A stretch of 52,440 nt of DNA from Eledone cirrhosa (Eukaryota). Shown piece after piece: positions 3,853-52,440 of this stretch (positions are counted from its first letter, which is position 1; every line of letters begins with the position of its first letter). The DNA is taken from contig CAXHJY010001375.1 in NCBI GenBank assembly GCA_964016885.1, positions 1-52,440 on the forward strand, read 5' to 3'. Position numbers and translations under genes: made by a program. A model generated the notes under the pieces. It was not told where the DNA came from and searched no databases. It saw only the letters and a program-made list of their open reading frames with translations.

Positions 3853-3884
<32 letters not shown>
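2792..3884. repeat. Compound (TA)n/(TATG)n microsatellite, about 1.1 kb
   Basis: Direct inspection. Confidence 0.98.
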
Positions 3885-3886
<2 letters not shown>

Positions 3887-4965: not shown

Positions 4966-5997
<1,032 letters not shown>

Positions 5998-6303: not shown

Positions 6304-6314
6304 ATACCTTCCTG

Positions 6315-6700: not shown

Positions 6701-6703
6701 TAT

Positions 6704-7270
6704 TTGCTCCGCATACAGATCCTAAAGCAACTATTTTACGGAGAGCTCCATCTTGGGAAAAGGCCTCAACACAACCCCAAAATGAGGTACAAGAACAGCG
6801 TCAAAAACAGCCTCAAAGAGCTGGCACTTGATATAGACAACTGGGAGGAGATAGCTCTAAATAGGCCTGAGGGCATAAAGGCCAGTTGCAAAACGTTTGA
6901 AGTATGGAGCCTAGAACAGAAACAGCTGAAGTGTCATGTGTATTCTGTCAACATGTATTCCACTCAAAAGCTGGTTACGTTAATCACCTGACGTGACATG
7001 AAAGAACAACCACTCACAACACCACTCAACAAAGACCTGGTGAAAAAACGTGATATGCACTAAAAAAACACATGGTGATGGATAAAGATTGTATCCTACA
7101 AAATGACTCTACCAATCCTGTGGAAAGCACAACTTCTGTGTCACCTGTGTCATAAACCATGCAGATCTGCAGCTGGTCTAAAAAGTCATCTACAAAGTCA
7201 TAGATGCGGATGGGATGACAATGAAAAAACAATGAGATGGCAATCACCTGTGAAGACACTGCAATCTTCA
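6704..7270 (+). mobile_element. RTE/BovB-type LINE 3' fragment with terminal C2H2 zinc finger
   Basis: KQLFYGEL..GKR....PKMRYK..VK..LK...IDNWEEIALNR, followed by CHLCHKPCRSAAGLKSHLQSH (C-x2-C-x12-H-x3-H). Confidence 0.75.
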
Positions 7271-19270: not shown

Positions 19271-19280
19271 TTGAATGTGT

Positions 19281-26675: not shown

Positions 26676-26699
26676 GGAGAGATTCAATTTGATGTGTAT

Positions 26700-28189: not shown

Positions 28190-29290
28190 TAAACATTAAC
28201 TTTAAAACAACATAGCTCAGTCAAGAAGAAACTTTATTGATTGAAATAAAAATAAAAAATCCCATTAGAATCTATACATTTTTGTCAACAAAATTATTTC
28301 AGCAACATAAATATCTGAATTTCTGGAAGCAATGAATTCTTCAAAGGCATTTTTTACAGCTGTTTGGTTATTGAAGACTTTTCCTTACAAGTTGCTTGAA
28401 AAAGTGCTACTTGGTTTGTGAACAATCTGGTTAGTTTGCTGGATGAGGCAGTTTCATAGTCCAATTCGTTATTCGAGTATTTGTTATGCAAGAGGATTGG
28501 ACCATTTCTATTGACCAATGCTGGACACATGCTGCAATTTTTTATGCATTTCATCAATTTCATGACAATACTTCTCTGCTGCTGTGATTGTTTCGTCAGA
28601 ATTCAGAAAGCTGTAGTGGAACCACCAATTACCATAACTTTTTTGTACAACTTTGGCTTTGGGAAGTGTTTAGGAAATTCATCTCAGTTCATCTACTCTG
28701 CTGAACATCATCAGTTGTTGTATAGGATCCGCTTTTCATTGCATATCACAACGATCAAGAAATTGGCCATTTTTATTGCACAAAAGAAACGAAAAGTAAA
28801 CTTCATAATGGCAATCTTTCTTTGACTTTCCAATTTGGTTCAACAATTGTTCCAATGCTCTCTGCAAGTTCTCAAACAGTCGTGTGAGGATTTACTTCCA
28901 CGAAAGCCTTCAATTCATCCTCATCTATAGCAGAACGACATTCATAGTCTTCCTTATCTTCAAGAATGAATTCACCATGATGGAATTTTTTAAACCAGCA
29001 TTGCAGATTCATTAACACTTCATTGATGTTTCTAGCAGTTTGTGTTGCATTGCAGTCGAGTTTAAACTCAGAAATTAATTTGATGAACATTCTGTTTTGA
29101 CATCTTAACTTAAAAAATCTGAAAATCAACCAAAAGGCAATATATGTTAAAAATGGGTTACAAAGGAAAAAATGTATAAAATAAGCTTTAAAACGATAAA
29201 TAATTTTCACACTTTGTATGAAAGTTTATTCTTAAAAAATGTTGAAACAAATGAAAACAAAAAACTTGCATTAATTTCTATTTAAACTAA
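28190..29290 (-). mobile_element. Mariner-family transposase remnant
   Basis: EFKL..NATQTARNINEV..LQCWFKKF..GEF.LED.....R....DEDELKA.VE.NP..T (HTH region), RILYNN, and NRNGPILLH (catalytic region). Boundaries are approximate. Confidence 0.8.
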
Positions 29291-30570
29291 TAATTTCTAC
29301 ATTCCATTTTGTTCACTTCTCCTTAACACTGCATTCTATTACTCCAATCTCCATTGTATGCCCTGTAAATGTGTCCATTCTTTAACCCTTTTGATATAAA
29401 CCTTTCCCAAACTGGCTCTTGTTCTATGAAATAAAATTACCCAATTTAAGGGATAATTTGAATTAGATTTAAATTTAAAATCTACCAATATTGTTTTATA
29501 TATAGTAGACAACTTCAATGGGCATCTATAATGGAATGCACAGTGGCTATGGATATGGTTCGAGAAATGAAGAGGATCAAGGTTCCTAGAATTCAGTGAC
29601 ATAACCAATTACTACTAACTTCAGGATTTCAGTCAGTCAAGTATGCAAGCCAGATCAACTTCATACTTGTCAGAAAATAGGACAGACAGATGATCATGAA
29701 TGCTAAGTCCTTTTGTGGAGAAAAATGGACCACCCAACACAAATTAGTTATTAGTGACAGGTAGAATCAGAAATGCAGGATAATGCAGTTTCTGCCTACC
29801 AAATTCACTCCCAGTGCTATAATAGAAAACACTTGCCCAAACTGCTACAGTGTGGGATGGAATCTAAAACTACATGGTTGTGAAGTAAACTTCTTAACCT
29901 CAGTCATGTCTAAGATAAATCATACCCTTGATAGGTCACTAGTCTATCGCAGGTAATATTCCCAGATAAACTACGTATTATTAGATAGAATTTGTAAAAT
30001 TTCTTTCCTTCGGTGTAAACTTTTAACTGAAGCTTGTGAGATGGTTGATCATGGGGAGGTGTTTAGCCGAATGGTTAGGTTGTTGGACTCATGATCATAA
30101 GGCTGTGTTCAATTCCTTGGCTGAATGATGCATTGTGTTTTTGAACAAGATATTTTCTCACGTTGCTTTTCATTATAGGACTAGTGCCCCCTATCATTGA
30201 AACACCCTAGAAACCTCCTGTGATATTACATCTCATAAAGTGACCAACTAAACTTACACAAGTTGGACTGTATTTTCCTATGATTTGTTGACCTTTTTAC
30301 TTTAAGCAACATGTCCTACTGTGGGACTTGTATTTCTGCTTCATTCAAGTAAGACTAGTTTTGAAACAATTCTTTAGTTGTTTAAAAATCTGAACCACCA
30401 CTCATTTTACTATTAATTGTAAAATGTAAATTTGACAAAGACCAAACTTTGAATCTAACAAACTGAAACTGAATATGTGAACTTTTTGTTTAAATATTGA
30501 TTAAATATTTGTATTCATATCAGTCAGATTTTAAAAGAAATCTTTTGAATGTTTTAACAGTATCCAAGGT

Positions 30571-32423: not shown

Positions 32424-33277
32424 ATCATCATCATCGTCGTTTTACGTCCGTTCTTCCACACAAGCATGGGTTAGATGGGTTGTCCTGTTGTGGGCAGTGT
32501 TCAGTCGGCTGACCTTGTCTTGCTCATACAGTAACTGATTCTGGTTTGATTTCTACAGCTGGATGCCCTTTCCTAACACCAACCTGATTTACAACAGTGA
32601 GTGCTGGGTGCCTTTTTCCGTGGCGCCTACTTTACAGTGTGAGCTGGGTGCTTTTTTTTTTCAGTGGAAGGGTGTGGGGGGCATATTGTCTATATGCTTT
32701 AGCTTCGGCTTATTCCTGTAGGGGGTCGAGTCTTCTGTATTACTGCTGGACGCCAGAGGTCACGGTCGTGTGTCATTGCTCTTAAGAGGTGCAATTGGGT
32801 AAGGTCGGCCTTTATCACCTCATCCCAGATCTTCTTGGGTCTCCCCACTCCGCGCCTTCCATCGACTTCTAGTGCTCTGCACTTTTTTATGCAGCTGTCA
32901 TCCTTCATACGCATCACATGTCCATACCAACGTAACTTCCTCTCCTACACACAGCATTTGATTCCTCTGATGCTCAGTCTCTGTCTCTCAATTCGTTTAT
33001 AATTTGCCGTTCGCGTATATTACTATTACACATCCATCGGAACATGCAAGCTTCATTTCTTTCTAATCTGCACAAGTCTTCTACAGACAGCGCCCAGGTT
33101 TTACTTCCATGTAACATTGCTGTTCGTATACACGCATCGTACAGTCTGCCTTTCATTTTGAGGGAAAAGCCTTTTGCAGCTAGCAGTTGCAGTAGCTCCC
33201 TGAACTATTTCCATCCTGTTCTTACCCTAGTTATTGTACTTTCCGAACACCCTCCTCCGCTGCTAATTCGGTCACTA
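32424..33277 (-). mobile_element. RTE subfamily B, 5'-truncated copy
   Basis: ORFs 32699-32917 and 32974-33156; highly similar to 16924-17750; TA tracts on both sides. Confidence 0.92.
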
Positions 33278-33582: not shown

Positions 33583-33918
33583 GGAGGCACATGGCTTAGT
33601 GGTTAGAGCATTGGCCTTGCAATCGAAAGGTTGTGAGTTCAATTCTCAGACCGGGTGATGTGTTGTTTCCTTAAGCAAGACACTTTATTTCACATTGCTC
33701 CAGTTTACTCAGCTGTAGAAATGAGATGATAGGGACTGAGGTCCATATCATTCCACTGCAAAGTGGTCGTGGAGGTGCCACGGCAAAAAAGCACCCAGCA
33801 CTCAGTCAATGAGGTTGGTGTTAGGAAGGGCATCCATCTGTAGAAATCAAGCCAGAATCAGTACCCGTCCCACCCTTGCAAGCAGGGAAAAGCGGACGTA
33901 AAATGAAATGATGATGAT
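33583..33918 (+). mobile_element. Complete tRNA-CORE-RTE-tail SINE
   Basis: A box TGGCTTAGTGG and B box GTTCAATTC. CORE-like CCTTAAGCAAGACACTTTA...CCAGTTTACTCAGCTGTAGAAATG (compare the MIR core). RTE 3'UTR-derived tail ending in (GAT)n. Confidence 0.9.
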
Positions 33919-33964
33919 ATATATATATATCGTATATCTATATATATATATCTCTATATATATC

Positions 33965-33997
<33 letters not shown>

Positions 33998-34269
33998 CTA
34001 TATATATATCTATATATATATCTATATATATATCTATATATATATATCTATATATATATATCTATATATATATATCTATATATATATCTATATATCTATA
34101 TATCTATATATATATATCTATATATATATATCTATATATATATATATATATATATATCTATATATATCTATATATATATATATATCTCTATATATATCTA
34201 TATATATATCTATATATATATCTATATATATATCTATATATATATCTATATATATATATATATATATCT
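33919..34269. repeat. (TA)n/(TATC)n microsatellite between SINE and LINE tails
   Basis: Direct inspection. Confidence 0.97.
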
Positions 34270-37200
34270 ATCATCATCATCATCATCATCAACGTTTAAC
34301 GTCCGTGTTCCACGCTTGCATGGGTTTGGACGGGGGTAGTCCCACTTGAGGCAAGAGTGATTGTCTTGCTCGCATAGGACTGTCTGGCAGGTTTTCTACA
34401 GTTGGATGCCCTTCCTAACACCAACCACATTTACAGTGTGGGTCTGGGAGGTTTTTACCGTGTTGCCTACACGGCCACATTACAGCGTGGACTGTGTGTT
34501 TTTTTGTCGTGACACCTACACGATCTCATTTGTTTCGGCCTGGATGGCGCGGCACCAACATAACTTTACATAGAACGGGGTGGTGTGGATGGGGTGGGGG
34601 TGGCGGCGGGAGGGGTGTATTTTGTTAGAGATGCCTACTGGCAAGGCGGGTCTTCTCTGTTACTGAGTACCGCCAAAGGTCACGGTCCAGTGACATTGTC
34701 TTGGAGAGGTGTAAGTGTGTGAGGTCGGAGTTTATCAGCTCATCCCATGTTTTTCTAGGTCTGCCTATTCCGTGGCTACCGTCTATCTTTATTGCCCTGC
34801 ACTTTGTAATACAGCTATCGACTTTCATGCGCATCACGTGTCCATACCAACGCAGCCTTCTCTCGAGTAAACAACATCTGATCCCTCTTATCTCTAATTT
34901 TTTCCTTAGTTCGTTTATGCTTTGCCGTTCACGTATATTACTGTTACACATCCAGCGGAGCATGCAAGCTTCGTTCCTCTCTAGTCTGCGTATATCCTCT
35001 GCACACAATGCCCAGGTCTCACTACCATGCAACATTGCTGTTCGTATGCAGGCATCGTACAACCTGCCTTTCATTTTTAGGGAGAACCCTTTAGCAGCTA
35101 ATAGTGGTATAAGCTCTCTGAACTTTTTCCAACCAGTTCTGACTCTAGCTACAGTACTTTCAGAGCACCCTCCCCCACTGCTGATTTTATCGCCCAGGTA
35201 ACGGAAGCTGTCCACTATTTCTATAAAACCCTCTGCGCAATTGAAAGAGCTAGTATTTTGTGGGCACTTGCTGCTACTTATTGCACCAGAACACCGGCCA
35301 CATGTAAAGTCTATGTTCTTAGTTAGCTTACCTGTGATCCCACTACATCTTTTATGCACCCATACTTTGCATTTAGGACATAAGATGGAGTTTCTACCTA
35401 CGCCTTTCCTACATACCGAGCACGACCATTTCCCAGAAGGGACCGCCGCCTTGTTTTCTTTCCTACAAACTAGAACTTTGGTCTTAGCCAGGTTAATTTT
35501 AAGTCCTTTTGACTCTAGGCCGTGCTTCCATGTTTGGAATTTCTTCTCTAGCTCGGCCATTGATTCCGCTATGAGTGTCAGGTCGTCTGCGTATAGGAGT
35601 TCCCATGGGCAGCCTGTCTTGAACTCCTCTGTTATAGCCTGAAGGGCAATAATAAATAGTAGGGGGCTGAGAACAGAGCCCTGATGGACGCCAACTTTTA
35701 CGCTAAACTCTTCACTATATTCGTTGTTAATTCTAACCTTGCTGACTGTTTCTTTATACATGGCTTGTATAGCCCTCACAAGCCATTCGTCAACGCCTAG
35801 TTTTCTAAGAGCCCACCAGATAATGGAGCGGGGGACTCTGTCGAAGGCTTTCTCCAGGTCGACAAAAGCTAAGTAGAGGGGTTTACCTTTAGCTAGGTAC
35901 TTCTCCTGTAGTTGTCGTACTATGAAAAGAGCGTCTGTGGTGCTTTTGCCTGACACAAACCCGAACTGCATTTCATCTAGATCAATTCTCTCTCTGATTA
36001 GTTGCGCTATTACTTTTTCCGTGACCTTCATGACCTGGTCGATTAATTTAATGCCTCTATAGTTACTCCTATCTAGGGCGTCTCCTTTACCCTTATAACA
36101 GTTAACGATGATGCTGCTATGCCAGTCCTTCGGAACAACCCCATTCTGTACGACTTGGTTAACTATGCGGGTGACCATGGTGTGTCCCACCGTGCCAGAT
36201 GCCTTCAGCATCTCAGCAACTATTTCCGAAGGCCCAGCCGCCTTACCAGTCTTCATATCCTTGATTGCCTTACTTATTATACTCCCCTCGACTAACACTG
36301 CTGGTCCCTCTATCGGGTCGATATGGGGGAGACTGTCTTTCTCCCATTTATTCTCCTCATTTAGTAGCCTTTCATAGTGACACTTCCAAGCTACCTTCTT
36401 ATCAGTGTCGGTGATGGCAAGTATGCCATCATCGTTAAGTACACACTTCTCCCCGACAATATCACGGTTTTCCTTGACGCATTGCCTGGCAATCCTGAAC
36501 ACCTCACGTTTTTGGTCATCGCGTTGTAGAACATGCTTGAACTTTCTTTCCTCAGCTTCCCTTCTTGCTAAGTACACTTCTCTCCTAGCTTCCCTCCTGG
36601 CCACTTGATAGTCTACTCTACTTCCCCCATCCCGCCATACTTTCCAAGCCTGCTTTTTGGCCTTAATTGACCCCTCCACCTTACTGTTCCACCACCATGT
36701 TACTCTCCTCCTGCCTACAGGCCTGCTCCAGCCACAGACTTCGTCTGTTGCCAACAGCAGGTTAGCTTTCAGAAATTTCCACTGTCCCTCTATATTGTCC
36801 GATTCTAGATGCTCTTCCTTACTGTCGAAAGCATCAAGTAATATGCTTTGAAATTTATTTCTGGCTGTGGGGTCTTTTAGTTTCCATATTTTCCTCCTGA
36901 GGATAGTCCTCTTCTGCTGTCGGGTGCGTCTCGTCCTGACTATGAGGTCGCTAATTATCAGTCTATGTTGGGAGGTGCATTCTTCATGGGGGAGGGATTT
37001 AGTGTTTACAACAGACACTCTGTCACGTCTTCTGGTAAGGATATAATCTACCTGGCTTGTGTGTTCCCCGGATCTATAGGTAATCAGGTGATTGTCACGT
37101 TTTTTGAAGTTAGTGTTACAGATAGTTAGGTTATTTGCATCACAGTATTCCAGAATTCTGGAGCCTTCCTCATTTCTAGTACCAAACCCATAGCCTCCAT

Positions 37201-37893
37201 GGATTTCGTCATAGCCGTCACAATGTTGTCCAACGTGACCATTTAGGTCGCCTGCAATAATTATATAGTCACTGTCAGATATTTGGGAGGTAGTTAGCAA
37301 CAGTGTCTCATAGAATCTGTCTTTTATAGTGCCGGGCAGTCCGGATTGGGGTGCGTACGCAGATATTACTGTCACCGTAGTTCTATTGAGGACAAGTCTT
37401 ATTTTAATTATTCTGTCGTTCACTCTATTTACGTCTATTATCTTATCTGCCCACTTTTCTGCTACCATGATTCCTACTCCACCCAGCCCATCGTCGTTTC
37501 CCACCCAGAAAAGCTTATAACATCGTTTTTTACCCTCAATGAATCTAGCAGACCCACCCCTCCACCTGGTCTCTTGAATACAACAAACATCGACCTCCTT
37601 ACGTTCAAGCATTTCTACAACCTCGTTAGCGCGACCCTTTAGGGTGCCTACATTTATGGTACCAACTCTGAAGTTTTGGGTTGCGTTTGGAGGGTGGGGG
37701 TGGTGGGGGGCGGGAGGAGATAGGGTTATGTTAGCCATCCGCGGACGAAACAAAGAGGAGTGCTCGCATTCTCGTCCACGAGGTGAATTTGACTTTAACT
37801 TTGGCATTTTCGCTCTGGGCGTCCAGATTTTTCTCTCCCTTCCACTCTCCAAGGATTCCGCAGTCCGTCCGTCCATCCATCCATCCATCCATC
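34270..37893 (-). mobile_element. Apparently full-length, potentially active RTE-clade LINE (subfamily A)
   Basis: Single intact ORF, ~350-bp 3'UTR, (GAT)7 tail and a 5' (GGAT)n(GGAC)n leader. The true 5' boundary is uncertain. Confidence 0.93.
34625..37888 (-). CDS. RTE ORF: APE endonuclease + reverse transcriptase with inserted PHD-like C4HC3 finger
   Basis: APE motifs GTINVGTL, CIQETRW, SAYAPQ, GDLNGHVG, QVDYIL and SQHRL. RT motifs YRGIKL, QFGF, FVDLEKAFD, GVHQGSVLSP, YADD, GLKINLAKT and FRYLG. C-terminal [15 protein letters not shown]. The real start may be a downstream Met (MPKL or MANI). Confidence 0.95.
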   Translation of the reverse strand: MDGWMDGRTAESLESGRERKIWTPRAKMPKLKSNSPRGRECEHSSLFRPRMANITLSPPAPHHPHPPNATQNFRVGTINVGTLKGRANEVVEMLERKEVDVCCIQETRWRGGSARFIEGKKRCYKLFWVGNDDGLGGVGIMVAEKWADKIIDVNRVNDRIIKIRLVLNRTTVTVISAYAPQSGLPGTIKDRFYETLLLTTSQISDSDYIIIAGDLNGHVGQHCDGYDEIHGGYGFGTRNEEGSRILEYCDANNLTICNTNFKKRDNHLITYRSGEHTSQVDYILTRRRDRVSVVNTKSLPHEECTSQHRLIISDLIVRTRRTRQQKRTILRRKIWKLKDPTARNKFQSILLDAFDSKEEHLESDNIEGQWKFLKANLLLATDEVCGWSRPVGRRRVTWWWNSKVEGSIKAKKQAWKVWRDGGSRVDYQVARREARREVYLARREAEERKFKHVLQRDDQKREVFRIARQCVKENRDIVGEKCVLNDDGILAITDTDKKVAWKCHYERLLNEENKWEKDSLPHIDPIEGPAVLVEGSIISKAIKDMKTGKAAGPSEIVAEMLKASGTVGHTMVTRIVNQVVQNGVVPKDWHSSIIVNCYKGKGDALDRSNYRGIKLIDQVMKVTEKVIAQLIRERIDLDEMQFGFVSGKSTTDALFIVRQLQEKYLAKGKPLYLAFVDLEKAFDRVPRSIIWWALRKLGVDEWLVRAIQAMYKETVSKVRINNEYSEEFSVKVGVHQGSVLSPLLFIIALQAITEEFKTGCPWELLYADDLTLIAESMAELEKKFQTWKHGLESKGLKINLAKTKVLVCRKENKAAVPSGKWSCSVCRKGVGRNSILCPKCKVWVHKRCSGITGKLTKNIDFTCGRCSGAISSSKCPQNTSSFNCAEGFIEIVDSFRYLGDKISSGGGCSESTVARVRTGWKKFRELIPLLAAKGFSLKMKGRLYDACIRTAMLHGSETWALCAEDIRRLERNEACMLRWMCNSNIRERQSINELRKKLEIRGIRCCLLERRLRWYGHVMRMKVDSCITKCRAIKIDGSHGIGRPRKTWDELINSDLTHLHLSKTMSLDRDLWRYSVTEKTRLASRHL

Positions 37894-37929
37894 ATATATC
37901 GAAGGCAACCGGGCAAGCGATAGTATAGG

Positions 37930-38107
37930 CCTCTGGCTTATGATTTGGTCCGCGTAATAATAATAATGGTGATGCGTGGGGGTGGGGGTGGGTGGCTCTG
38001 GCTTATAATAATGGTGGTGATGCGGGGGGGGGGGCTCTGGCTTATGATTGGTCCACGTATTAAGTATGGTGGCGTGTGGGGGCGGGAGGGAGGGGTGTGG
38101 GGTAGCT
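37930..38107. repeat. Three imperfect G-rich ~40-70-bp repeats between LINE 5' end and array (possible promoter)
   Basis: CTCTGGCTTAT starts at about 37931, 37996 and 38035, each followed by a G-run. ATTGG (CCAAT on the minus strand) is at 38047 and GGGGCGGG at about 38079. Confidence 0.7.
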
Positions 38108-38377
38108 AGCTGGAAGGTTATGAATGTTTAACAAGCGATTTAACAAAAAGCAAAACTGCAAGATTTGTTCTGTTCAATACGACAAAAACACCGTATTTAA
38201 ACCTTAAATAGATAACAAAAAAATACAGATTTCGGATTTTGCGAGATTGGATGTTTGTTTGGACTGTGTACGGAATTGAGCGTGGAAATGGAGAGAAGGA
38301 TTGTACTTTACGGTTTACATGAGTCCATCATAGAAATAGTTGAAGCAAAGTGGATAAACATGAGGGAAAACTTATCT

Positions 38378-38412
<35 letters not shown>

Positions 38413-38881
38413 AGCTAAGCGAGAGATAGAGGGGAAGAAAGAGAGGGGGGGGAGATAGTGGCTGACCGCAGCCCCCTCGTGGAGAAGCAGGAGGGTGAAG
38501 GGGTGGATCGGCTTTTTGACTTTCAAGTAGCATACTATATATATTTAAAGTAATTTATAAGTAGAATGGGGAGGATTTTGTTTTTTTTTGTTTGAGAATA
38601 CGATAGAATTAAGCTGGAAGGTTATGAATGTTTAACAAGCGATTTAACAAAAAGCAAAACTGCAAGATTTGTTCTGTTCAATACGACAAAAACACCGTAT
38701 TTAAACCTTAAATAGATAACAAAAAAATACAGATTTCGGATTTTGCGAGATTGGATGTTTGTTTGGACTGTGTACGGAATTGAGCGTGGAAATGGAGAGA
38801 AGGATTGTACTTTACGGTTTACATGAGTCCATCATAGAAATAGTTGAAGCAAAGTGGATAAACATGAGGGAAAACTTATCT

Positions 38882-38916
<35 letters not shown>

Positions 38917-39386
38917 AGCTAAGCGAGAGATAGAGGGGAAGAAAGAGAGGGGGAGGGAGATAGTGGCTGACCGCAGCCCCCTCGTGGAGAAGCAGGAGGG
39001 TGAAGGGGTGGATCGGCTTTTTGACTTTCAAGTAGCATACTATATATATTTAAAGTAATTTATAAGTAGAATGGGGAGGATTTTGTTTTTTTTTGTTTGA
39101 GAATACGATAGAATTAAGCTGGAAGGTTATGAATGTTTAACAAGCGATTTAACAAAAAGCAAAACTGCAAGATTTGTTCTGTTCAATACGACAAAAACAC
39201 CGTATTTAAACCTTAAATAGATAACAAAAAAATACAGATTTCGGATTTTGCGAGATTGGATGTTTGTTTGGACTGTGTACGGAATTGAGCGTGGAAATGG
39301 AGAGAAGGATTGTACTTTACGGTTTACATGAGTCCATCATAGAAATAGTTGAAGCAAAGTGGATAAACATGAGGGAAAACTTATCT

Positions 39387-39421
<35 letters not shown>

Positions 39422-39890
39422 AGCTAAGCGAGAGATAGAGGGGAAGAAAGAGAGGGGGGGGAGATAGTGGCTGACCGCAGCCCCCTCGTGGAGAAGCAGG
39501 AGGGTGAAGGGGTGGATCGGCTTTTTGACTTTCAAGTAGCATACTATATATATTTAAAGTAATTTATAAGTAGAATGGGGAGGATTTTGTTTTTTTTTGT
39601 TTGAGAATACGATAGAATTAAGCTGGAAGGTTATGAATGTTTAACAAGCGATTTAACAAAAAGCAAAACTGCAAGATTTGTTCTGTTCAATACGACAAAA
39701 ACACCGTATTTAAACCTTAAATAGATAACAAAAAAATACAGATTTCGGATTTTGCGAGATTGGATGTTTGTTTGGACTGTGTACGGAATTGAGCGTGGAA
39801 ATGGAGAGAAGGATTGTACTTTACGGTTTACATGAGTCCATCATAGAAATAGTTGAAGCAAAGTGGATAAACATGAGGGAAAACTTATCT

Positions 39891-39925
<35 letters not shown>

Positions 39926-40395
39926 AGCTAAGCGAGAGATAGAGGGGAAGAAAGAGAGGGGGAGGGAGATAGTGGCTGACCGCAGCCCCCTCGTGGAGAA
40001 GCAGGAGGGTGAAGGGGTGGATCGGCTTTTTGACTTTCAAGTAGCATACTATATATATTTAAAGTAATTTATAAGTAGAATGGGGAGGATTTTGTTTTTT
40101 TTTGTTTGAGAATACGATAGAATTAAGCTGGAAGGTTATGAATGTTTAACAAGCGATTTAACAAAAAGCAAAACTGCAAGATTTGTTCTGTTCAATACGA
40201 CAAAAACACCGTATTTAAACCTTAAATAGATAACAAAAAAATACAGATTTCGGATTTTGCGAGATTGGATGTTTGTTTGGACTGTGTACGGAATTGAGCG
40301 TGGAAATGGAGAGAAGGATTGTACTTTACGGTTTACATGAGTCCATCATAGAAATAGTTGAAGCAAAGTGGATAAACATGAGGGAAAACTTATCT

Positions 40396-40430
<35 letters not shown>

Positions 40431-40900
40431 AGCTAAGCGAGAGATAGAGGGGAAGAAAGAGAGGGGGGGGGAGATAGTGGCTGACCGCAGCCCCCTCGTG
40501 GAGAAGCAGGAGGGTGAAGGGGTGGATCGGCTTTTTGACTTTCAAGTAGCATACTATATATATTTAAAGTAATTTATAAGTAGAATGGGGAGGATTTTGT
40601 TTTTTTTTGTTTGAGAATACGATAGAATTAAGCTGGAAGGTTATGAATGTTTAACAAGCGATTTAACAAAAAGCAAAACTGCAAGATTTGTTCTGTTCAA
40701 TACGACAAAAACACCGTATTTAAACCTTAAATAGATAACAAAAAAATACAGATTTCGGATTTTGCGAGATTGGATGTTTGTTTGGACTGTGTACGGAATT
40801 GAGCGTGGAAATGGAGAGAAGGATTGTACTTTACGGTTTACATGAGTCCATCATAGAAATAGTTGAAGCAAAGTGGATAAACATGAGGGAAAACTTATCT

Positions 40901-40935
<35 letters not shown>

Positions 40936-41405
40936 AGCTAAGCGAGAGATAGAGGGGAAGAAAGAGAGGGGGGGGGAGATAGTGGCTGACCGCAGCCCCC
41001 TCGTGGAGAAGCAGGAGGGTGAAGGGGTGGATCGGCTTTTTGACTTTCAAGTAGCATACTATATATATTTAAAGTAATTTATAAGTAGAATGGGGAGGAT
41101 TTTGTTTTTTTTTGTTTGAGAATACGATAGAATTAAGCTGGAAGGTTATGAATGTTTAACAAGCGATTTAACAAAAAGCAAAACTGCAAGATTTGTTCTG
41201 TTCAATACGACAAAAACACCGTATTTAAACCTTAAATAGATAACAAAAAAATACAGATTTCGGATTTTGCGAGATTGGATGTTTGTTTGGACTGTGTACG
41301 GAATTGAGCGTGGAAATGGAGAGAAGGATTGTACTTTACGGTTTACATGAGTCCATCATAGAAATAGTTGAAGCAAAGTGGATAAACATGAGGGAAAACT
41401 TATCT

Positions 41406-41440
<35 letters not shown>

Positions 41441-41910
41441 AGCTAAGCGAGAGATAGAGGGGAAGAAAGAGAGGGGGGGGGAGATAGTGGCTGACCGCAG
41501 CCCCCTCGTGGAGAAGCAGGAGGGTGAAGGGGTGGATCGGCTTTTTGACTTTCAAGTAGCATACTATATATATTTAAAGTAATTTATAAGTAGAATGGGG
41601 AGGATTTTGTTTTTTTTTGTTTGAGAATACGATAGAATTAAGCTGGAAGGTTATGAATGTTTAACAAGCGATTTAACAAAAAGCAAAACTGCAAGATTTG
41701 TTCTGTTCAATACGACAAAAACACCGTATTTAAACCTTAAATAGATAACAAAAAAATACAGATTTCGGATTTTGCGAGATTGGATGTTTGTTTGGACTGT
41801 GTACGGAATTGAGCGTGGAAATGGAGAGAAGGATTGTACTTTACGGTTTACATGAGTCCATCATAGAAATAGTTGAAGCAAAGTGGATAAACATGAGGGA
41901 AAACTTATCT

Positions 41911-41945
<35 letters not shown>

Positions 41946-42415
41946 AGCTAAGCGAGAGATAGAGGGGAAGAAAGAGAGGGGGGGGGAGATAGTGGCTGAC
42001 CGCAGCCCCCTCGTGGAGAAGCAGGAGGGTGAAGGGGTGGATCGGCTTTTTGACTTTCAAGTAGCATACTATATATATTTAAAGTAATTTATAAGTAGAA
42101 TGGGGAGGATTTTGTTTTTTTTTGTTTGAGAATACGATAGAATTAAGCTGGAAGGTTATGAATGTTTAACAAGCGATTTAACAAAAAGCAAAACTGCAAG
42201 ATTTGTTCTGTTCAATACGACAAAAACACCGTATTTAAACCTTAAATAGATAACAAAAAAATACAGATTTCGGATTTTGCGAGATTGGATGTTTGTTTGG
42301 ACTGTGTACGGAATTGAGCGTGGAAATGGAGAGAAGGATTGTACTTTACGGTTTACATGAGTCCATCATAGAAATAGTTGAAGCAAAGTGGATAAACATG
42401 AGGGAAAACTTATCT

Positions 42416-42450
<35 letters not shown>

Positions 42451-42919
42451 AGCTAAGCGAGAGATAGAGGGGAAGAAAGAGAGGGGGGGGAGATAGTGGC
42501 TGACCGCAGCCCCCTCGTGGAGAAGCAGGAGGGTGAAGGGGTGGATCGGCTTTTTGACTTTCAAGTAGCATACTATATATATTTAAAGTAATTTATAAGT
42601 AGAATGGGGAGGATTTTGTTTTTTTTTGTTTGAGAATACGATAGAATTAAGCTGGAAGGTTATGAATGTTTAACAAGCGATTTAACAAAAAGCAAAACTG
42701 CAAGATTTGTTCTGTTCAATACGACAAAAACACCGTATTTAAACCTTAAATAGATAACAAAAAAATACAGATTTCGGATTTTGCGAGATTGGATGTTTGT
42801 TTGGACTGTGTACGGAATTGAGCGTGGAAATGGAGAGAAGGATTGTACTTTACGGTTTACATGAGTCCATCATAGAAATAGTTGAAGCAAAGTGGATAAA
42901 CATGAGGGAAAACTTATCT

Positions 42920-42954
<35 letters not shown>

Positions 42955-43424
42955 AGCTAAGCGAGAGATAGAGGGGAAGAAAGAGAGGGGGGGGGAGATA
43001 GTGGCTGACCGCAGCCCCCTCGTGGAGAAGCAGGAGGGTGAAGGGGTGGATCGGCTTTTTGACTTTCAAGTAGCATACTATATATATTTAAAGTAATTTA
43101 TAAGTAGAATGGGGAGGATTTTGTTTTTTTTTGTTTGAGAATACGATAGAATTAAGCTGGAAGGTTATGAATGTTTAACAAGCGATTTAACAAAAAGCAA
43201 AACTGCAAGATTTGTTCTGTTCAATACGACAAAAACACCGTATTTAAACCTTAAATAGATAACAAAAAAATACAGATTTCGGATTTTGCGAGATTGGATG
43301 TTTGTTTGGACTGTGTACGGAATTGAGCGTGGAAATGGAGAGAAGGATTGTACTTTACGGTTTACATGAGTCCATCATAGAAATAGTTGAAGCAAAGTGG
43401 ATAAACATGAGGGAAAACTTATCT

Positions 43425-43459
<35 letters not shown>

Positions 43460-43929
43460 AGCTAAGCGAGAGATAGAGGGGAAGAAAGAGAGGGGGGGGG
43501 AGATAGTGGCTGACCGCAGCCCCCTCGTGGAGAAGCAGGAGGGTGAAGGGGTGGATCGGCTTTTTGACTTTCAAGTAGCATACTATATATATTTAAAGTA
43601 ATTTATAAGTAGAATGGGGAGGATTTTGTTTTTTTTTGTTTGAGAATACGATAGAATTAAGCTGGAAGGTTATGAATGTTTAACAAGCGATTTAACAAAA
43701 AGCAAAACTGCAAGATTTGTTCTGTTCAATACGACAAAAACACCGTATTTAAACCTTAAATAGATAACAAAAAAATACAGATTTCGGATTTTGCGAGATT
43801 GGATGTTTGTTTGGACTGTGTACGGAATTGAGCGTGGAAATGGAGAGAAGGATTGTACTTTACGGTTTACATGAGTCCATCATAGAAATAGTTGAAGCAA
43901 AGTGGATAAACATGAGGGAAAACTTATCT

Positions 43930-43964
<35 letters not shown>

Positions 43965-44434
43965 AGCTAAGCGAGAGATAGAGGGGAAGAAAGAGAGGGG
44001 GGGGGAGATAGTGGCTGACCGCAGCCCCCTCGTGGAGAAGCAGGAGGGTGAAGGGGTGGATCGGCTTTTTGACTTTCAAGTAGCATACTATATATATTTA
44101 AAGTAATTTATAAGTAGAATGGGGAGGATTTTGTTTTTTTTTGTTTGAGAATACGATAGAATTAAGCTGGAAGGTTATGAATGTTTAACAAGCGATTTAA
44201 CAAAAAGCAAAACTGCAAGATTTGTTCTGTTCAATACGACAAAAACACCGTATTTAAACCTTAAATAGATAACAAAAAAATACAGATTTCGGATTTTGCG
44301 AGATTGGATGTTTGTTTGGACTGTGTACGGAATTGAGCGTGGAAATGGAGAGAAGGATTGTACTTTACGGTTTACATGAGTCCATCATAGAAATAGTTGA
44401 AGCAAAGTGGATAAACATGAGGGAAAACTTATCT

Positions 44435-44469
<35 letters not shown>

Positions 44470-44939
44470 AGCTAAGCGAGAGATAGAGGGGAAGAAAGAG
44501 AGGGGGGGGGAGATAGTGGCTGACCGCAGCCCCCTCGTGGAGAAGCAGGAGGGTGAAGGGGTGGATCGGCTTTTTGACTTTCAAGTAGCATACTATATAT
44601 ATTTAAAGTAATTTATAAGTAGAATGGGGAGGATTTTGTTTTTTTTTGTTTGAGAATACGATAGAATTAAGCTGGAAGGTTATGAATGTTTAACAAGCGA
44701 TTTAACAAAAAGCAAAACTGCAAGATTTGTTCTGTTCAATACGACAAAAACACCGTATTTAAACCTTAAATAGATAACAAAAAAATACAGATTTCGGATT
44801 TTGCGAGATTGGATGTTTGTTTGGACTGTGTACGGAATTGAGCGTGGAAATGGAGAGAAGGATTGTACTTTACGGTTTACATGAGTCCATCATAGAAATA
44901 GTTGAAGCAAAGTGGATAAACATGAGGGAAAACTTATCT

Positions 44940-44974
<35 letters not shown>

Positions 44975-45444
44975 AGCTAAGCGAGAGATAGAGGGGAAGA
45001 AAGAGAGGGGGGGGGAGATAGTGGCTGACCGCAGCCCCCTCGTGGAGAAGCAGGAGGGTGAAGGGGTGGATCGGCTTTTTGACTTTCAAGTAGCATACTA
45101 TATATATTTAAAGTAATTTATAAGTAGAATGGGGAGGATTTTGTTTTTTTTTGTTTGAGAATACGATAGAATTAAGCTGGAAGGTTATGAATGTTTAACA
45201 AGCGATTTAACAAAAAGCAAAACTGCAAGATTTGTTCTGTTCAATACGACAAAAACACCGTATTTAAACCTTAAATAGATAACAAAAAAATACAGATTTC
45301 GGATTTTGCGAGATTGGATGTTTGTTTGGACTGTGTACGGAATTGAGCGTGGAAATGGAGAGAAGGATTGTACTTTACGGTTTACATGAGTCCATCATAG
45401 AAATAGTTGAAGCAAAGTGGATAAACATGAGGGAAAACTTATCT

Positions 45445-45479
<35 letters not shown>

Positions 45480-45949
45480 AGCTAAGCGAGAGATAGAGGG
45501 GAAGAAAGAGAGGGGGGGGGAGATAGTGGCTGACCGCAGCCCCCTCGTGGAGAAGCAGGAGGGTGAAGGGGTGGATCGGCTTTTTGACTTTCAAGTAGCA
45601 TACTATATATATTTAAAGTAATTTATAAGTAGAATGGGGAGGATTTTGTTTTTTTTTGTTTGAGAATACGATAGAATTAAGCTGGAAGGTTATGAATGTT
45701 TAACAAGCGATTTAACAAAAAGCAAAACTGCAAGATTTGTTCTGTTCAATACGACAAAAACACCGTATTTAAACCTTAAATAGATAACAAAAAAATACAG
45801 ATTTCGGATTTTGCGAGATTGGATGTTTGTTTGGACTGTGTACGGAATTGAGCGTGGAAATGGAGAGAAGGATTGTACTTTACGGTTTACATGAGTCCAT
45901 CATAGAAATAGTTGAAGCAAAGTGGATAAACATGAGGGAAAACTTATCT

Positions 45950-45984
<35 letters not shown>

Positions 45985-46454
45985 AGCTAAGCGAGAGATA
46001 GAGGGGAAGAAAGAGAGGGGGGGGGAGATAGTGGCTGACCGCAGCCCCCTCGTGGAGAAGCAGGAGGGTGAAGGGGTGGATCGGCTTTTTGACTTTCAAG
46101 TAGCATACTATATATATTTAAAGTAATTTATAAGTAGAATGGGGAGGATTTTGTTTTTTTTTGTTTGAGAATACGATAGAATTAAGCTGGAAGGTTATGA
46201 ATGTTTAACAAGCGATTTAACAAAAAGCAAAACTGCAAGATTTGTTCTGTTCAATACGACAAAAACACCGTATTTAAACCTTAAATAGATAACAAAAAAA
46301 TACAGATTTCGGATTTTGCGAGATTGGATGTTTGTTTGGACTGTGTACGGAATTGAGCGTGGAAATGGAGAGAAGGATTGTACTTTACGGTTTACATGAG
46401 TCCATCATAGAAATAGTTGAAGCAAAGTGGATAAACATGAGGGAAAACTTATCT

Positions 46455-46489
<35 letters not shown>

Positions 46490-47456
46490 AGCTAAGCGAG
46501 AGATAGAGGGGAAGAAAGAGAGGGGGGGGGAGATAGTGGCTGACCGCAGCCCCCTCGTGGAGAAGCAGGAGGGTGAAGGGGTGGATCGGCTTTTTGACTT
46601 TCAAGTAGCATACTATATATATTTAAAGTAATTTATAAGTAGAATGGGGAGGATTTTGTTTTTTTTTGTTTGAGAATACGATAGAATTAAGCTGGAAGGT
46701 TATGAATGTTTAACAAGCGATTTAACAAAAAGCAAAACTGCAAGATTTGTTCTGTTCAATACGACAAAAACACCGTATTTAAACCTTAAATAGATAACAA
46801 AAAAATACAGATTTCGGATTTTGCGAGATTGGATGTTTGTTTGGACTGTGTACGGAATTGAGCGTGGAAATGGAGAGAAGGATTGTACTTTACGGTTTAC
46901 ATGAGTCCATCATAGAAATAGTTGAAGCAAAGTGGATAAACATGAGGGAAAACTTATCTTATATATATATGTGTGTGTGTGTGTGTAGCTAAGCGAGAGA
47001 TAGAGGGGAAGAAAGAGAGGGGGGGGGAGATAGTGGCTGACCGCAGCCCCCTCGTGGAGAAGCAGGAGGGTGAAGGGGTGGATCGGCTTTTTGACTTTCA
47101 AGTAGCATACTATATATATTTAAAGTAATTTATAAGTAGAATGGGGAGGATTTTGTTTTTTTTTGTTTGAGAATACGATAGAATTAAGCTGGAAGGTTAT
47201 GAATGTTTAACAAGCGATTTAACAAAAAGCAAAACTGCAAGATTTGTTCTGTTCAATACGACAAAAACACCGTATTTAAACCTTAAATAGATAACAAAAA
47301 AATACAGATTTCGGATTTTGCGAGATTGGATGTTTGTTTGGACTGTGTACGGAATTGAGCGTGGAAATGGAGAGAAGGATTGTACTTTACGGTTTACATG
47401 AGTCCATCATAGAAATAGTTGAAGCAAAGTGGATAAACATGAGGGAAAACTTATCT

Positions 47457-47491
<35 letters not shown>

Positions 47492-47961
47492 AGCTAAGCG
47501 AGAGATAGAGGGGAAGAAAGAGAGGGGGGGGGAGATAGTGGCTGACCGCAGCCCCCTCGTGGAGAAGCAGGAGGGTGAAGGGGTGGATCGGCTTTTTGAC
47601 TTTCAAGTAGCATACTATATATATTTAAAGTAATTTATAAGTAGAATGGGGAGGATTTTGTTTTTTTTTGTTTGAGAATACGATAGAATTAAGCTGGAAG
47701 GTTATGAATGTTTAACAAGCGATTTAACAAAAAGCAAAACTGCAAGATTTGTTCTGTTCAATACGACAAAAACACCGTATTTAAACCTTAAATAGATAAC
47801 AAAAAAATACAGATTTCGGATTTTGCGAGATTGGATGTTTGTTTGGACTGTGTACGGAATTGAGCGTGGAAATGGAGAGAAGGATTGTACTTTACGGTTT
47901 ACATGAGTCCATCATAGAAATAGTTGAAGCAAAGTGGATAAACATGAGGGAAAACTTATCT

Positions 47962-47996
<35 letters not shown>

Positions 47997-48466
47997 AGCT
48001 AAGCGAGAGATAGAGGGGAAGAAAGAGAGGGGGGGGGAGATAGTGGCTGACCGCAGCCCCCTCGTGGAGAAGCAGGAGGGTGAAGGGGTGGATCGGCTTT
48101 TTGACTTTCAAGTAGCATACTATATATATTTAAAGTAATTTATAAGTAGAATGGGGAGGATTTTGTTTTTTTTTGTTTGAGAATACGATAGAATTAAGCT
48201 GGAAGGTTATGAATGTTTAACAAGCGATTTAACAAAAAGCAAAACTGCAAGATTTGTTCTGTTCAATACGACAAAAACACCGTATTTAAACCTTAAATAG
48301 ATAACAAAAAAATACAGATTTCGGATTTTGCGAGATTGGATGTTTGTTTGGACTGTGTACGGAATTGAGCGTGGAAATGGAGAGAAGGATTGTACTTTAC
48401 GGTTTACATGAGTCCATCATAGAAATAGTTGAAGCAAAGTGGATAAACATGAGGGAAAACTTATCT

Positions 48467-48501
<35 letters not shown>

Positions 48502-48971
48502 AGCTAAGCGAGAGATAGAGGGGAAGAAAGAGAGGGGGGGGGAGATAGTGGCTGACCGCAGCCCCCTCGTGGAGAAGCAGGAGGGTGAAGGGGTGGATCG
48601 GCTTTTTGACTTTCAAGTAGCATACTATATATATTTAAAGTAATTTATAAGTAGAATGGGGAGGATTTTGTTTTTTTTTGTTTGAGAATACGATAGAATT
48701 AAGCTGGAAGGTTATGAATGTTTAACAAGCGATTTAACAAAAAGCAAAACTGCAAGATTTGTTCTGTTCAATACGACAAAAACACCGTATTTAAACCTTA
48801 AATAGATAACAAAAAAATACAGATTTCGGATTTTGCGAGATTGGATGTTTGTTTGGACTGTGTACGGAATTGAGCGTGGAAATGGAGAGAAGGATTGTAC
48901 TTTACGGTTTACATGAGTCCATCATAGAAATAGTTGAAGCAAAGTGGATAAACATGAGGGAAAACTTATCT

Positions 48972-49006
<35 letters not shown>

Positions 49007-49476
49007 AGCTAAGCGAGAGATAGAGGGGAAGAAAGAGAGGGGGGGGGAGATAGTGGCTGACCGCAGCCCCCTCGTGGAGAAGCAGGAGGGTGAAGGGGTG
49101 GATCGGCTTTTTGACTTTCAAGTAGCATACTATATATATTTAAAGTAATTTATAAGTAGAATGGGGAGGATTTTGTTTTTTTTTGTTTGAGAATACGATA
49201 GAATTAAGCTGGAAGGTTATGAATGTTTAACAAGCGATTTAACAAAAAGCAAAACTGCAAGATTTGTTCTGTTCAATACGACAAAAACACCGTATTTAAA
49301 CCTTAAATAGATAACAAAAAAATACAGATTTCGGATTTTGCGAGATTGGATGTTTGTTTGGACTGTGTACGGAATTGAGCGTGGAAATGGAGAGAAGGAT
49401 TGTACTTTACGGTTTACATGAGTCCATCATAGAAATAGTTGAAGCAAAGTGGATAAACATGAGGGAAAACTTATCT

Positions 49477-49511
<35 letters not shown>

Positions 49512-49981
49512 AGCTAAGCGAGAGATAGAGGGGAAGAAAGAGAGGGGGGGGGAGATAGTGGCTGACCGCAGCCCCCTCGTGGAGAAGCAGGAGGGTGAAG
49601 GGGTGGATCGGCTTTTTGACTTTCAAGTAGCATACTATATATATTTAAAGTAATTTATAAGTAGAATGGGGAGGATTTTGTTTTTTTTTGTTTGAGAATA
49701 CGATAGAATTAAGCTGGAAGGTTATGAATGTTTAACAAGCGATTTAACAAAAAGCAAAACTGCAAGATTTGTTCTGTTCAATACGACAAAAACACCGTAT
49801 TTAAACCTTAAATAGATAACAAAAAAATACAGATTTCGGATTTTGCGAGATTGGATGTTTGTTTGGACTGTGTACGGAATTGAGCGTGGAAATGGAGAGA
49901 AGGATTGTACTTTACGGTTTACATGAGTCCATCATAGAAATAGTTGAAGCAAAGTGGATAAACATGAGGGAAAACTTATCT

Positions 49982-50016
<35 letters not shown>

Positions 50017-50486
50017 AGCTAAGCGAGAGATAGAGGGGAAGAAAGAGAGGGGGGGGGAGATAGTGGCTGACCGCAGCCCCCTCGTGGAGAAGCAGGAGGG
50101 TGAAGGGGTGGATCGGCTTTTTGACTTTCAAGTAGCATACTATATATATTTAAAGTAATTTATAAGTAGAATGGGGAGGATTTTGTTTTTTTTTGTTTGA
50201 GAATACGATAGAATTAAGCTGGAAGGTTATGAATGTTTAACAAGCGATTTAACAAAAAGCAAAACTGCAAGATTTGTTCTGTTCAATACGACAAAAACAC
50301 CGTATTTAAACCTTAAATAGATAACAAAAAAATACAGATTTCGGATTTTGCGAGATTGGATGTTTGTTTGGACTGTGTACGGAATTGAGCGTGGAAATGG
50401 AGAGAAGGATTGTACTTTACGGTTTACATGAGTCCATCATAGAAATAGTTGAAGCAAAGTGGATAAACATGAGGGAAAACTTATCT

Positions 50487-50521
<35 letters not shown>

Positions 50522-50991
50522 AGCTAAGCGAGAGATAGAGGGGAAGAAAGAGAGGGGGGGGGAGATAGTGGCTGACCGCAGCCCCCTCGTGGAGAAGCAG
50601 GAGGGTGAAGGGGTGGATCGGCTTTTTGACTTTCAAGTAGCATACTATATATATTTAAAGTAATTTATAAGTAGAATGGGGAGGATTTTGTTTTTTTTTG
50701 TTTGAGAATACGATAGAATTAAGCTGGAAGGTTATGAATGTTTAACAAGCGATTTAACAAAAAGCAAAACTGCAAGATTTGTTCTGTTCAATACGACAAA
50801 AACACCGTATTTAAACCTTAAATAGATAACAAAAAAATACAGATTTCGGATTTTGCGAGATTGGATGTTTGTTTGGACTGTGTACGGAATTGAGCGTGGA
50901 AATGGAGAGAAGGATTGTACTTTACGGTTTACATGAGTCCATCATAGAAATAGTTGAAGCAAAGTGGATAAACATGAGGGAAAACTTATCT

Positions 50992-51026
<35 letters not shown>

Positions 51027-51496
51027 AGCTAAGCGAGAGATAGAGGGGAAGAAAGAGAGGGGGGGGGAGATAGTGGCTGACCGCAGCCCCCTCGTGGAGA
51101 AGCAGGAGGGTGAAGGGGTGGATCGGCTTTTTGACTTTCAAGTAGCATACTATATATATTTAAAGTAATTTATAAGTAGAATGGGGAGGATTTTGTTTTT
51201 TTTTGTTTGAGAATACGATAGAATTAAGCTGGAAGGTTATGAATGTTTAACAAGCGATTTAACAAAAAGCAAAACTGCAAGATTTGTTCTGTTCAATACG
51301 ACAAAAACACCGTATTTAAACCTTAAATAGATAACAAAAAAATACAGATTTCGGATTTTGCGAGATTGGATGTTTGTTTGGACTGTGTACGGAATTGAGC
51401 GTGGAAATGGAGAGAAGGATTGTACTTTACGGTTTACATGAGTCCATCATAGAAATAGTTGAAGCAAAGTGGATAAACATGAGGGAAAACTTATCT

Positions 51497-51531
<35 letters not shown>

Positions 51532-52001
51532 AGCTAAGCGAGAGATAGAGGGGAAGAAAGAGAGGGGGGGGGAGATAGTGGCTGACCGCAGCCCCCTCGT
51601 GGAGAAGCAGGAGGGTGAAGGGGTGGATCGGCTTTTTGACTTTCAAGTAGCATACTATATATATTTAAAGTAATTTATAAGTAGAATGGGGAGGATTTTG
51701 TTTTTTTTTGTTTGAGAATACGATAGAATTAAGCTGGAAGGTTATGAATGTTTAACAAGCGATTTAACAAAAAGCAAAACTGCAAGATTTGTTCTGTTCA
51801 ATACGACAAAAACACCGTATTTAAACCTTAAATAGATAACAAAAAAATACAGATTTCGGATTTTGCGAGATTGGATGTTTGTTTGGACTGTGTACGGAAT
51901 TGAGCGTGGAAATGGAGAGAAGGATTGTACTTTACGGTTTACATGAGTCCATCATAGAAATAGTTGAAGCAAAGTGGATAAACATGAGGGAAAACTTATC
52001 T

Positions 52002-52036
<35 letters not shown>

Positions 52037-52440
52037 AGCTAAGCGAGAGATAGAGGGGAAGAAAGAGAGGGGGGGGGAGATAGTGGCTGACCGCAGCCCC
52101 CTCGTGGAGAAGCAGGAGGGTGAAGGGGTGGATCGGCTTTTTGACTTTCAAGTAGCATACTATATATATTTAAAGTAATTTATAAGTAGAATGGGGAGGA
52201 TTTTGTTTTTTTTTGTTTGAGAATACGATAGAATTAAGCTGGAAGGTTATGAATGTTTAACAAGCGATTTAACAAAAAGCAAAACTGCAAGATTTGTTCT
52301 GTTCAATACGACAAAAACACCGTATTTAAACCTTAAATAGATAACAAAAAAATACAGATTTCGGATTTTGCGAGATTGGATGTTTGTTTGGACTGTGTAC
52401 GGAATTGAGCGTGGAAATGGAGAGAAGGATTGTACTTTAC
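38108..52440. repeat. 505-bp tandem (satellite-like) array, 28 full units plus 1 partial, open at window end
   Basis: Unit begins AGCTGGAAGGTTATGAATG. ORF-track starts recur every 504-505 bp (one unit is 497 bp). The unit contains (AT)5(GT)12, G9 and T9. Confidence 0.99.

Follow-up and report, generated by a model that had tools for sequence, protein, structure and literature searches.

An intact RTE-like LINE beside a 505-bp tandem array in Eledone cirrhosa: a candidate 5′ monomer and tether

How RTE elements with a single open reading frame (ORF) gain and keep a promoter is poorly known, and some of them are thought to depend on read-through transcription and ribozymes. In another group of long interspersed nuclear elements (LINEs), the L1 elements of mouse and rat, monomers of ~200 and ~650 bp, respectively, carry the promoter and a tether of ~250 bp joins them to ORF1 (PMC5381506). 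Mouse L1 elements have on average 1.5–3.7 monomers, and more than 10 are found in 7 of 5765 loci (PMC9022269). Among RTE elements, HmRTE-e01 has a plain 5′ untranslated region (UTR) of 276 bp, some elements are said to be without a promoter of their own (PMC6765202), and RTE-2_OV of Octopus vulgaris is a full-length element whose single ORF of 1109 amino acids (aa) follows a 5′UTR of ~600 nt (PMC9115989). The present analysis concerns an intact RTE-like LINE and a tandem array of 505-bp units that lie close together on contig CAXHJY010001375.1 of the Eledone cirrhosa assembly GCA_964016885.1, in a stretch of 52,440 nt (positions 1 to 52,440 of the forward strand, referred to here as the window).

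An original prediction for this locus offered three explanations, namely that the array is an expanded set of 5′ monomers, that it supplies read-through transcription or a templated RNA, or that the LINE landed beside a satellite by chance. The near neighbourhood of LINE and array is more than chance, and the first of these explanations is the best supported. The reading favoured here on sequence evidence, with modest confidence, is that the unit and the spacer between it and the ORF are the 5′ monomer and tether of an RTE-like family with the layout of mouse L1, and that the array represents the monomers of this copy expanded by DNA-level duplication.

The array and the tether-like spacer

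The array, which would on this reading consist of expanded 5′ monomers on the minus strand, occupies 38108–52440 and extends to the last base of the window. Tandem Repeats Finder (TRF) reported 28.4 copies of a 505-bp period with 99% matches, and splitting the array gave 28 full units of 504 or 505 bp and a last piece of 204 nt, in agreement with the near-perfect array of at least 28 units and more than 14 kb that had been predicted. The full units fall into four sequence types, with 22, 3, 2 and 1 members (22 of 28 are thus identical), and the differences among them are confined to a G run and a TG run, 8 nt in the case of the TG run. Near-identity of the units indicates that growth was recent, and the variants of units 1–2 recur in units 3–4, a dimer pattern that supports duplication at the DNA level. 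The unit has 38% G+C and contains microsatellites. As had been claimed, it is found nowhere else in the window, where blastn returned only TA/TG microsatellite matches outside the array and no unit sequence on the 3′ side of the element. Derivation of the unit from the ORF or 3′UTR of the element was rejected (best match E 0.23), and an exact 24-mer of the unit had 0 matches in metagenome contigs and 0 in bacterial and archaeal genomes.

The ORF of the element is oriented away from the array, and two segments, both read on the minus strand, separate its ATG from the first unit. The ORF-proximal leader (37808–37893) holds a (GGAT)/(GGAC) tetramer repeat at 37863–37893, and the tether-like spacer (37894–38107) is a G/C-skewed segment of 214 bp, in which three copies of an 11-mer and an internal repeat of 78% identity bear out the short triplicated spacer described earlier. 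The occurrence of these segments in other copies was followed in sequencing runs aligned to 37200–38611 at 85% likeness, with 4 of the 23 matching runs used and 16 of the 20 rows of the run search left out for a share below 0.2. X1 and X2 are contigs of organism A from one study, X5 is contigs of organism B from a different study, and X21 is raw restriction-site-associated DNA (RAD) reads of 150 nt from organism A, from a study separate from that of X1 and X2. Of the 2816 aligned pieces, 24 are listed individually.

Two of these 24 contig pieces cross position 37893 into the spacer. Record 6 of X1 spans 37716–37944 at a depth of 80.8, with 5 other letters and 4 gaps, and record 23 of X5 spans 37762–37936 at a depth of 5.74, with 1 other letter and 13 gaps; the gaps of 4 and 13 letters are probably length variation in the tetramer repeat at 37863–37893. 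Since record 6 differs from the window, it represents another copy, and since the whole of the X1 depth at 37786–37818 (80.8) comes from this bridging contig, the aligned X1 ORF starts run on into the spacer. Variants within the spacer, in contigs of X1 and X2, were each found in several contigs (37911, 37914, 37944, 37955, 38060, 38073 and 38083), and the mean bin depth of the spacer is of the same order as that of the ORF start in all four runs (44.9 vs 80.8 in X1, 12085 vs 10210 in X2, 61.7 vs 161.7 in X21, and 2.8 vs 12.1 in X5). The tether is therefore common to the ORF starts of other copies, and bridging contigs from two organisms together with a multi-copy, polymorphic spacer make the spacer part of the 5′ region of the family and 37893 no insertion boundary. 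This runs counter to the original prediction, in which the 5′ end of the element lay at ~37893, about 200 bp from the array; 37891–37893 is the start of the open frame, not the end of the element, whose true 5′ end probably lies beyond the window. Unrelated 5′ flanks at ~37893 were looked for in part, and both bridging contigs listed carry the spacer. The tables of loose ends are without the repeat at 37857–37902 and without 315 further ends, and spacer copies free of the element are for this reason possible.

The same evidence bears on a one-off insertion by chance at the edge of a satellite, with a true 5′ end at ~37893 and the ATATAT that follows it as a remnant of the target. The ATATAT directly after 37893 does match the (AT)n flank at the element's 3′ end, and the window is dense in such elements, but in two organisms contigs that have diverged extend past 37893 and enter one and the same spacer, the spacer is multi-copy, and the flank at 37893 is not microsatellite-like (score 0.36). 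With ATATAT also occurring six times in 37500–38611, its interpretation as a target remnant at 37894 was rejected. A one-off landing is thus highly improbable, and this form of the chance explanation is largely excluded.

Searches for the 5′ region outside the sequencing runs gave no matches. A 21-mer of the spacer had 0 matches in viral contigs, and none of 79 metagenome loci of relatives, nearly all of them fragments without a 5′ end, matches the leader, spacer or unit. Three repeats with a period of at least 50 were found in these 79 loci, none of them upstream of an ORF start, and two loci with upstream DNA (L001 and L033) have nothing similar by eye. At 37798, 37800, 38060, 38073 and 38339, all X1 contigs carry a letter other than that of the window (X2 likewise at 38339), while some stretches of the ORF are identical; judged by these letters, the leader and unit of the window are a variant other than the main one of organism A.

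From spacer to unit: evidence and competing explanations

At the next boundary, 38107/38108, no listed piece bridges spacer and unit at a bar of 31 letters. Deleted letters are not counted in the bin depth (predicted 1261.9, observed 1261.8), and in the X1 bin 38112–38159 the 533 unexplained depth-bases amount to 12.01 positions of a contig with depth 44.4 and three spacer variants, for which the listed end distances independently give 38042–38123. By this arithmetic, a variant copy in X1 likely crosses from spacer to unit and extends 16 nt beyond the junction. In both X2 and X5, the end of the unit is connected to 38100–38102 by single contigs of low depth, which suggests that the last letters of the spacer are unit sequence lost from the unit-to-unit junction of the window itself. 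For the explanation by expanded 5′ monomers, the membership of the spacer in the family accordingly stands on bridging contigs, and the link from spacer to unit in another sample on deduction from depth. Unit variants are present in X1, X2 and X5; unit copies in X1 have additional short subrepeats where the unit ends, and a junction 38282→38111 in organism B (X5) corresponds to a monomer of ~172 nt. The parts of the unit at 38544–38611 and 38108–38290 are deeper than its middle in all four runs.

Several points weigh against the monomer-and-tether reading. Where the bar is 31 letters, the deduced link is 16 letters long (24 if the shared end of the spacer is counted), and it was obtained in a single run; X5 has a depth of 0 at 38016–38063, with no such link seen in organism B. 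The depth of the unit relative to the ORF start is 16–19 in X1 but ~1 in X2, X5 and X21, these run depths being no copy number. In addition, the junction-bearing copies are known from short contigs without 3′ or distal flanks, and retrotransposition of the junction is accordingly presumptive. The promoter is likewise a prediction: in a scan with consensus patterns, no motif in the sequence was significant (30 of 300 shuffles did as well for a CCAAT-like box, and 111 of 300 for a GC box), and the TATA-like matches of the unit come from TA-rich runs. Finally, at least 28 units would be extreme by the standard of mouse L1, which rarely has more than 10 (7 of 5765 loci; PMC9022269).

Depth also enters into the weaker form of the chance explanation, in which an old insertion next to a satellite underwent later amplification as one block; this form is unlikely but has to be reckoned with. 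An ancestral full-length copy would have lain beside an independent satellite, and the block of element, spacer and array would later have multiplied (as a segmental, subtelomeric or spacer-like unit), leaving the 505-bp unit outside the retrotransposed RNA. Multi-copy polymorphic junctions common to close relatives are likewise predicted in this case, the unit in X1 is 26–31 times deeper than the junction, like a free satellite, and it has a variant and junction family of its own, comprising the shorter ~172-nt repeat of X5 and the end-subrepeats of X1. Fragments of transposable elements (TEs) and satellites that hitch-hike in the spacers of ribosomal DNA (rDNA) are documented as well (PMC10257491). 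However, essentially all aligned X1 ORF starts enter the spacer, and every full-length copy would need to be in the block; abundant contigs of X1 and X5 are identical to the ORF, which is intact, and this fits a family that is currently spreading; and the element has no unit sequence on its 3′ side. Rfam found no rRNA or other repeated gene in 1–40000 either, the far side of the array lying outside the window.

An assembly artefact, either a false junction or a short run of monomers stretched into a long perfect array, is very unlikely. The identity of 22 of the 28 units and the way the array runs off the window are what such an error would produce, and X1 lacks letters of the window at several sites, among them 38339 (lacking in X2 too). 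On the other side, the junction of ORF and spacer is present in independent runs (the junction of spacer and unit being deduced there), the units carry patterned variants, and the unit is deep in X1.

A further possibility joins a reverse transcriptase (RT) to a template, with the unit as a separate or circular RNA, similar to a retrozyme, of which the RT made repeated copies once it had switched template at the 5′ end of the element, or with a ribozyme that frees the element from a read-through transcript. Such copying could account for the near-perfect identity of the units, and there are precedents in the ribozymes of the hepatitis delta virus (HDV) type in promoter-less RTEs and in the hammerheads of newt satellites and of tandem repeats resembling short interspersed nuclear elements (SINEs) (PMC6765202). 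The dimer pattern of units 1–2 and 3–4 is nevertheless better explained by DNA duplication, and an Rfam search of 37500–39200 with a limit of E≤10 brought up neither a ribozyme nor any other family, the seven hits obtained being weak snoRNA and lncRNA matches far below the gathering score. In 1–40000, no Rfam family reached the gathering score, nearly all of the 108 hits being microRNA models driven by microsatellites. No hammerhead core was found on either strand, and no stable fold was obtained, the folding z-scores being +1.69 (leader and spacer together) and −0.07 (unit). An HDV-like descriptor had 0 hits, a weak test with 0 hits in 30 shuffles as well and no positive control. The original explanation by read-through or a templated RNA is left unsupported by these searches, and a template of this kind is very improbable.

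On the monomer-and-tether reading, transcription would start inside a monomer, by analogy with mouse L1, and would read through the downstream monomers, the tether, the ORF and the (TGA)n tail. Through target-primed reverse transcription, the encoded endonuclease-RT protein would place new copies in (TA)n-type microsatellites, and most copies would end up 5′-truncated, a truncation that is observed in the window. Copies of full length would bring with them a monomer, or at least a portion of one, and could thereby keep the promoter. At this locus, the monomers would have multiplied after insertion through unequal DNA exchange, and not through reverse transcription of an RNA of more than 18 kb. 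A broader version, in which full-length copies routinely carry stacks of monomers that, following every insertion, grow again into arrays of several kilobases, with the LINE both renewing its promoter and seeding a dispersed macrosatellite family, is doubtful. The 26–31 units per junction in X1 would in that version be the average of the family.

Should the monomer-and-tether reading be true, an RTE-like element would have arrived by convergence, in a different clade, at the solution of rodent L1, and a near-perfect array of at least 14 kb that joins an intact element without a break would capture the birth of satellite DNA from the leader of a LINE. Repeat libraries would then cut the 5′ end of the family too short and file the leader as an unrelated satellite. 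If the block was amplified instead, the locus would be an ordinary neighbourhood of a TE and a satellite.

The intact element, its insertion sites and the rest of the window

The minus-strand frame of the element is open from stop to stop at 37891–34625 (1088 aa), and the ORF from the ATG at 37807 to 34625 encodes 1060 aa. As predicted, this is the only intact RT ORF in the window. It is a single ORF with AP (apurinic/apyrimidinic) endonuclease and RT and no ORF1, and the other ORFs that overlap 37298–39058 have at most 116 aa. All of its domains are on the minus strand: the AP-like endonuclease domain lies at 36953–37660 (converted from residues 78–313; Pfam PF03372, E 4e-11, and PF14529), the RT domain at 35468–36070 (PF00078, E 3.7e-32), with YADD at residue 739, and a PHD finger directly after the RT at 35291–35422 (PF00628, E 2.2e-06). 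All 28 aligned sequences keep the PHD ligands C796, C799, C810, C813, H818, C821, C836 and C839 unchanged, which makes the finger an old feature of the lineage; it is kept in distant relatives and may have a role such as chromatin reading at target sites.

The nearest near-full-length protein relatives are 50–54% identical, and the best match in PDB is human L1 ORF2p (E 5.5e-30). Short named relatives include a ‘craniofacial development protein 2-like’ protein, which is presumably the usual label for RTE/BovB endonucleases. The exact protein is absent from the protein collection searched, viral contigs contained no relatives, and none of the relatives recovered bears a cephalopod name. From its single ORF and simple-repeat tail, the LINE likely belongs to the RTE clade. 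Contigs of X1 that are identical to the ORF of the window have depths of 433 and 346, which suggests that the element is one member of a large young subfamily.

The 3′UTR of the element (34291–34624, minus strand) is by blastn partly common to other copies and to SINE-like tails in the window. It is followed by a tail of seven TGA repeats, (TGA)7, at 34270–34290 (minus strand) and not by poly(A), and the tail adjoins an (AT)n-type microsatellite at 33917–34269 (33917–34267 in TRF), the likely insertion target. Three of three young copies (tails at 424, 4965 and 34270) adjoin a TA-type microsatellite, against a background of 9.6% of random 40-mers, and 4 of the 5 tails found in a scan of the window score at least 0.75 for a microsatellite flank. 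The copies at 424–2555 and 3885–4974 are 5′-truncated, 94% and 95% identical to the full element and in opposite orientations, with long TA/TG microsatellite flanks; that at 3885–4974 has a microsatellite on both sides (score 1.0, against 0.36 for the flank at 37893). The family thus apparently prefers to insert into (TA)n-type microsatellites, as far as these flanks can indicate.

Eight other ORF-bearing loci in the window are all truncated, frameshifted or interrupted by stops (469–2555, 3872–4570, 17202–19272, 20026–21280, 24996–26308, 26698–28124, 29627–29758 and 32726–33273), and several further pieces found by blastn consist of the 3′ tail only; the earlier count of about a dozen copies with one intact is therefore fair. 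Two tRNA-like heads were found at 33592–33916 (plus strand) and 2725–2782 (minus strand), for which the Rfam scores, 28.1 and 24.2 bits, do not reach the gathering score of 29. At 33592–33916, the head is followed by a tail that resembles the 3′ end of the LINE, with TGA repeats that end at the (AT)n run of the full element. Both tRNA-headed sequences are likely SINEs mobilised by this LINE family.

The repeat landscape of the window gives an octopus-like impression. Other mobile elements in the window are decayed. Pieces at ~6300–6800 (minus strand) and ~9700–10350 (plus strand) look by eye like decayed Penelope-type RT, with no Pfam hit at E≤0.01, and a G+C-rich region at ~10600–12050 (plus strand) looks by eye like the decayed C-terminal part of a LINE with a restriction-like endonuclease, also with no Pfam hit; motifs that we take to be characteristic of the Penelope type and of the restriction-like-endonuclease LINEs underlie these two readings. 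A mariner-type helix-turn-helix (HTH) fragment lies at 28872–29225 (minus strand; Pfam HTH_48, E 0.00028, below the curated cutoff), and 21821–21846 is a pure run of 26 C.

Comparison with known systems

No RTE with a 5′ monomer array was found in the titles and abstract openings of the literature searched, a search that did not extend to the repeat databases Repbase and Dfam or to subscription journals, and the family may already be catalogued. The parts used of PMC3849965 and PMC10294476 hold nothing further on 5′ repeats. For RTE-2_OV of O. vulgaris, the word ‘Tandem’ is absent from the main text of PMC9115989, and words from the 5′ region of the element were not found in the searched supplement files of PMC9115989 and PMC13282606. 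RTE-2_OV resembles the window element in its single ORF of similar size but has a C2H2 finger, in place of the PHD finger, and a microsatellite right after the ORF (PMC9115989). That the two belong to one family was rejected, as 0 of 3 tested primers match within 3 mismatches and the finger is of the PHD and not the C2H2 type.

The A-module of Dictyostelium TRE5-A reportedly occurs in tandem. This module of ~200 bp at the 5′ end of a non-LTR retrotransposon (one that lacks long terminal repeats) has promoter activity and is in this respect like the proposed monomer (PMC3159450), whereas TRE5-A has two ORFs, targets tRNA genes and has a short module, unlike the window element. Similarly, in ribozyme-bearing satellites and retrozymes, monomers some hundreds of bases long stand in tandem and are linked to retrotransposition (PMC6765202); these systems differ in their ribozymes, given that no hammerhead core, Rfam ribozyme or stable fold was found in the window element or unit.

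Among RTE elements, RTE-1, BovB and the lepidopteran RTEs share with the window element a single ORF with AP endonuclease and RT, a simple-repeat 3′ tail and many 5′-truncated copies (PMC2887409). The PHD finger after the RT, the 3′UTR of ~330 bp and a 5′ region that reaches at least to the array set the window element apart from the RTEs described. In comparison with rodent L1, it has a single ORF and no ORF1, its unit is 505 bp long with 38% G+C and microsatellites, and its promoter is a prediction only. The layout itself is that of the 5′UTR of mouse and rat L1, where tandem units at the 5′ end are joined to the first ORF by a non-monomer segment of 200–300 bp (PMC5381506; PMC9022269).

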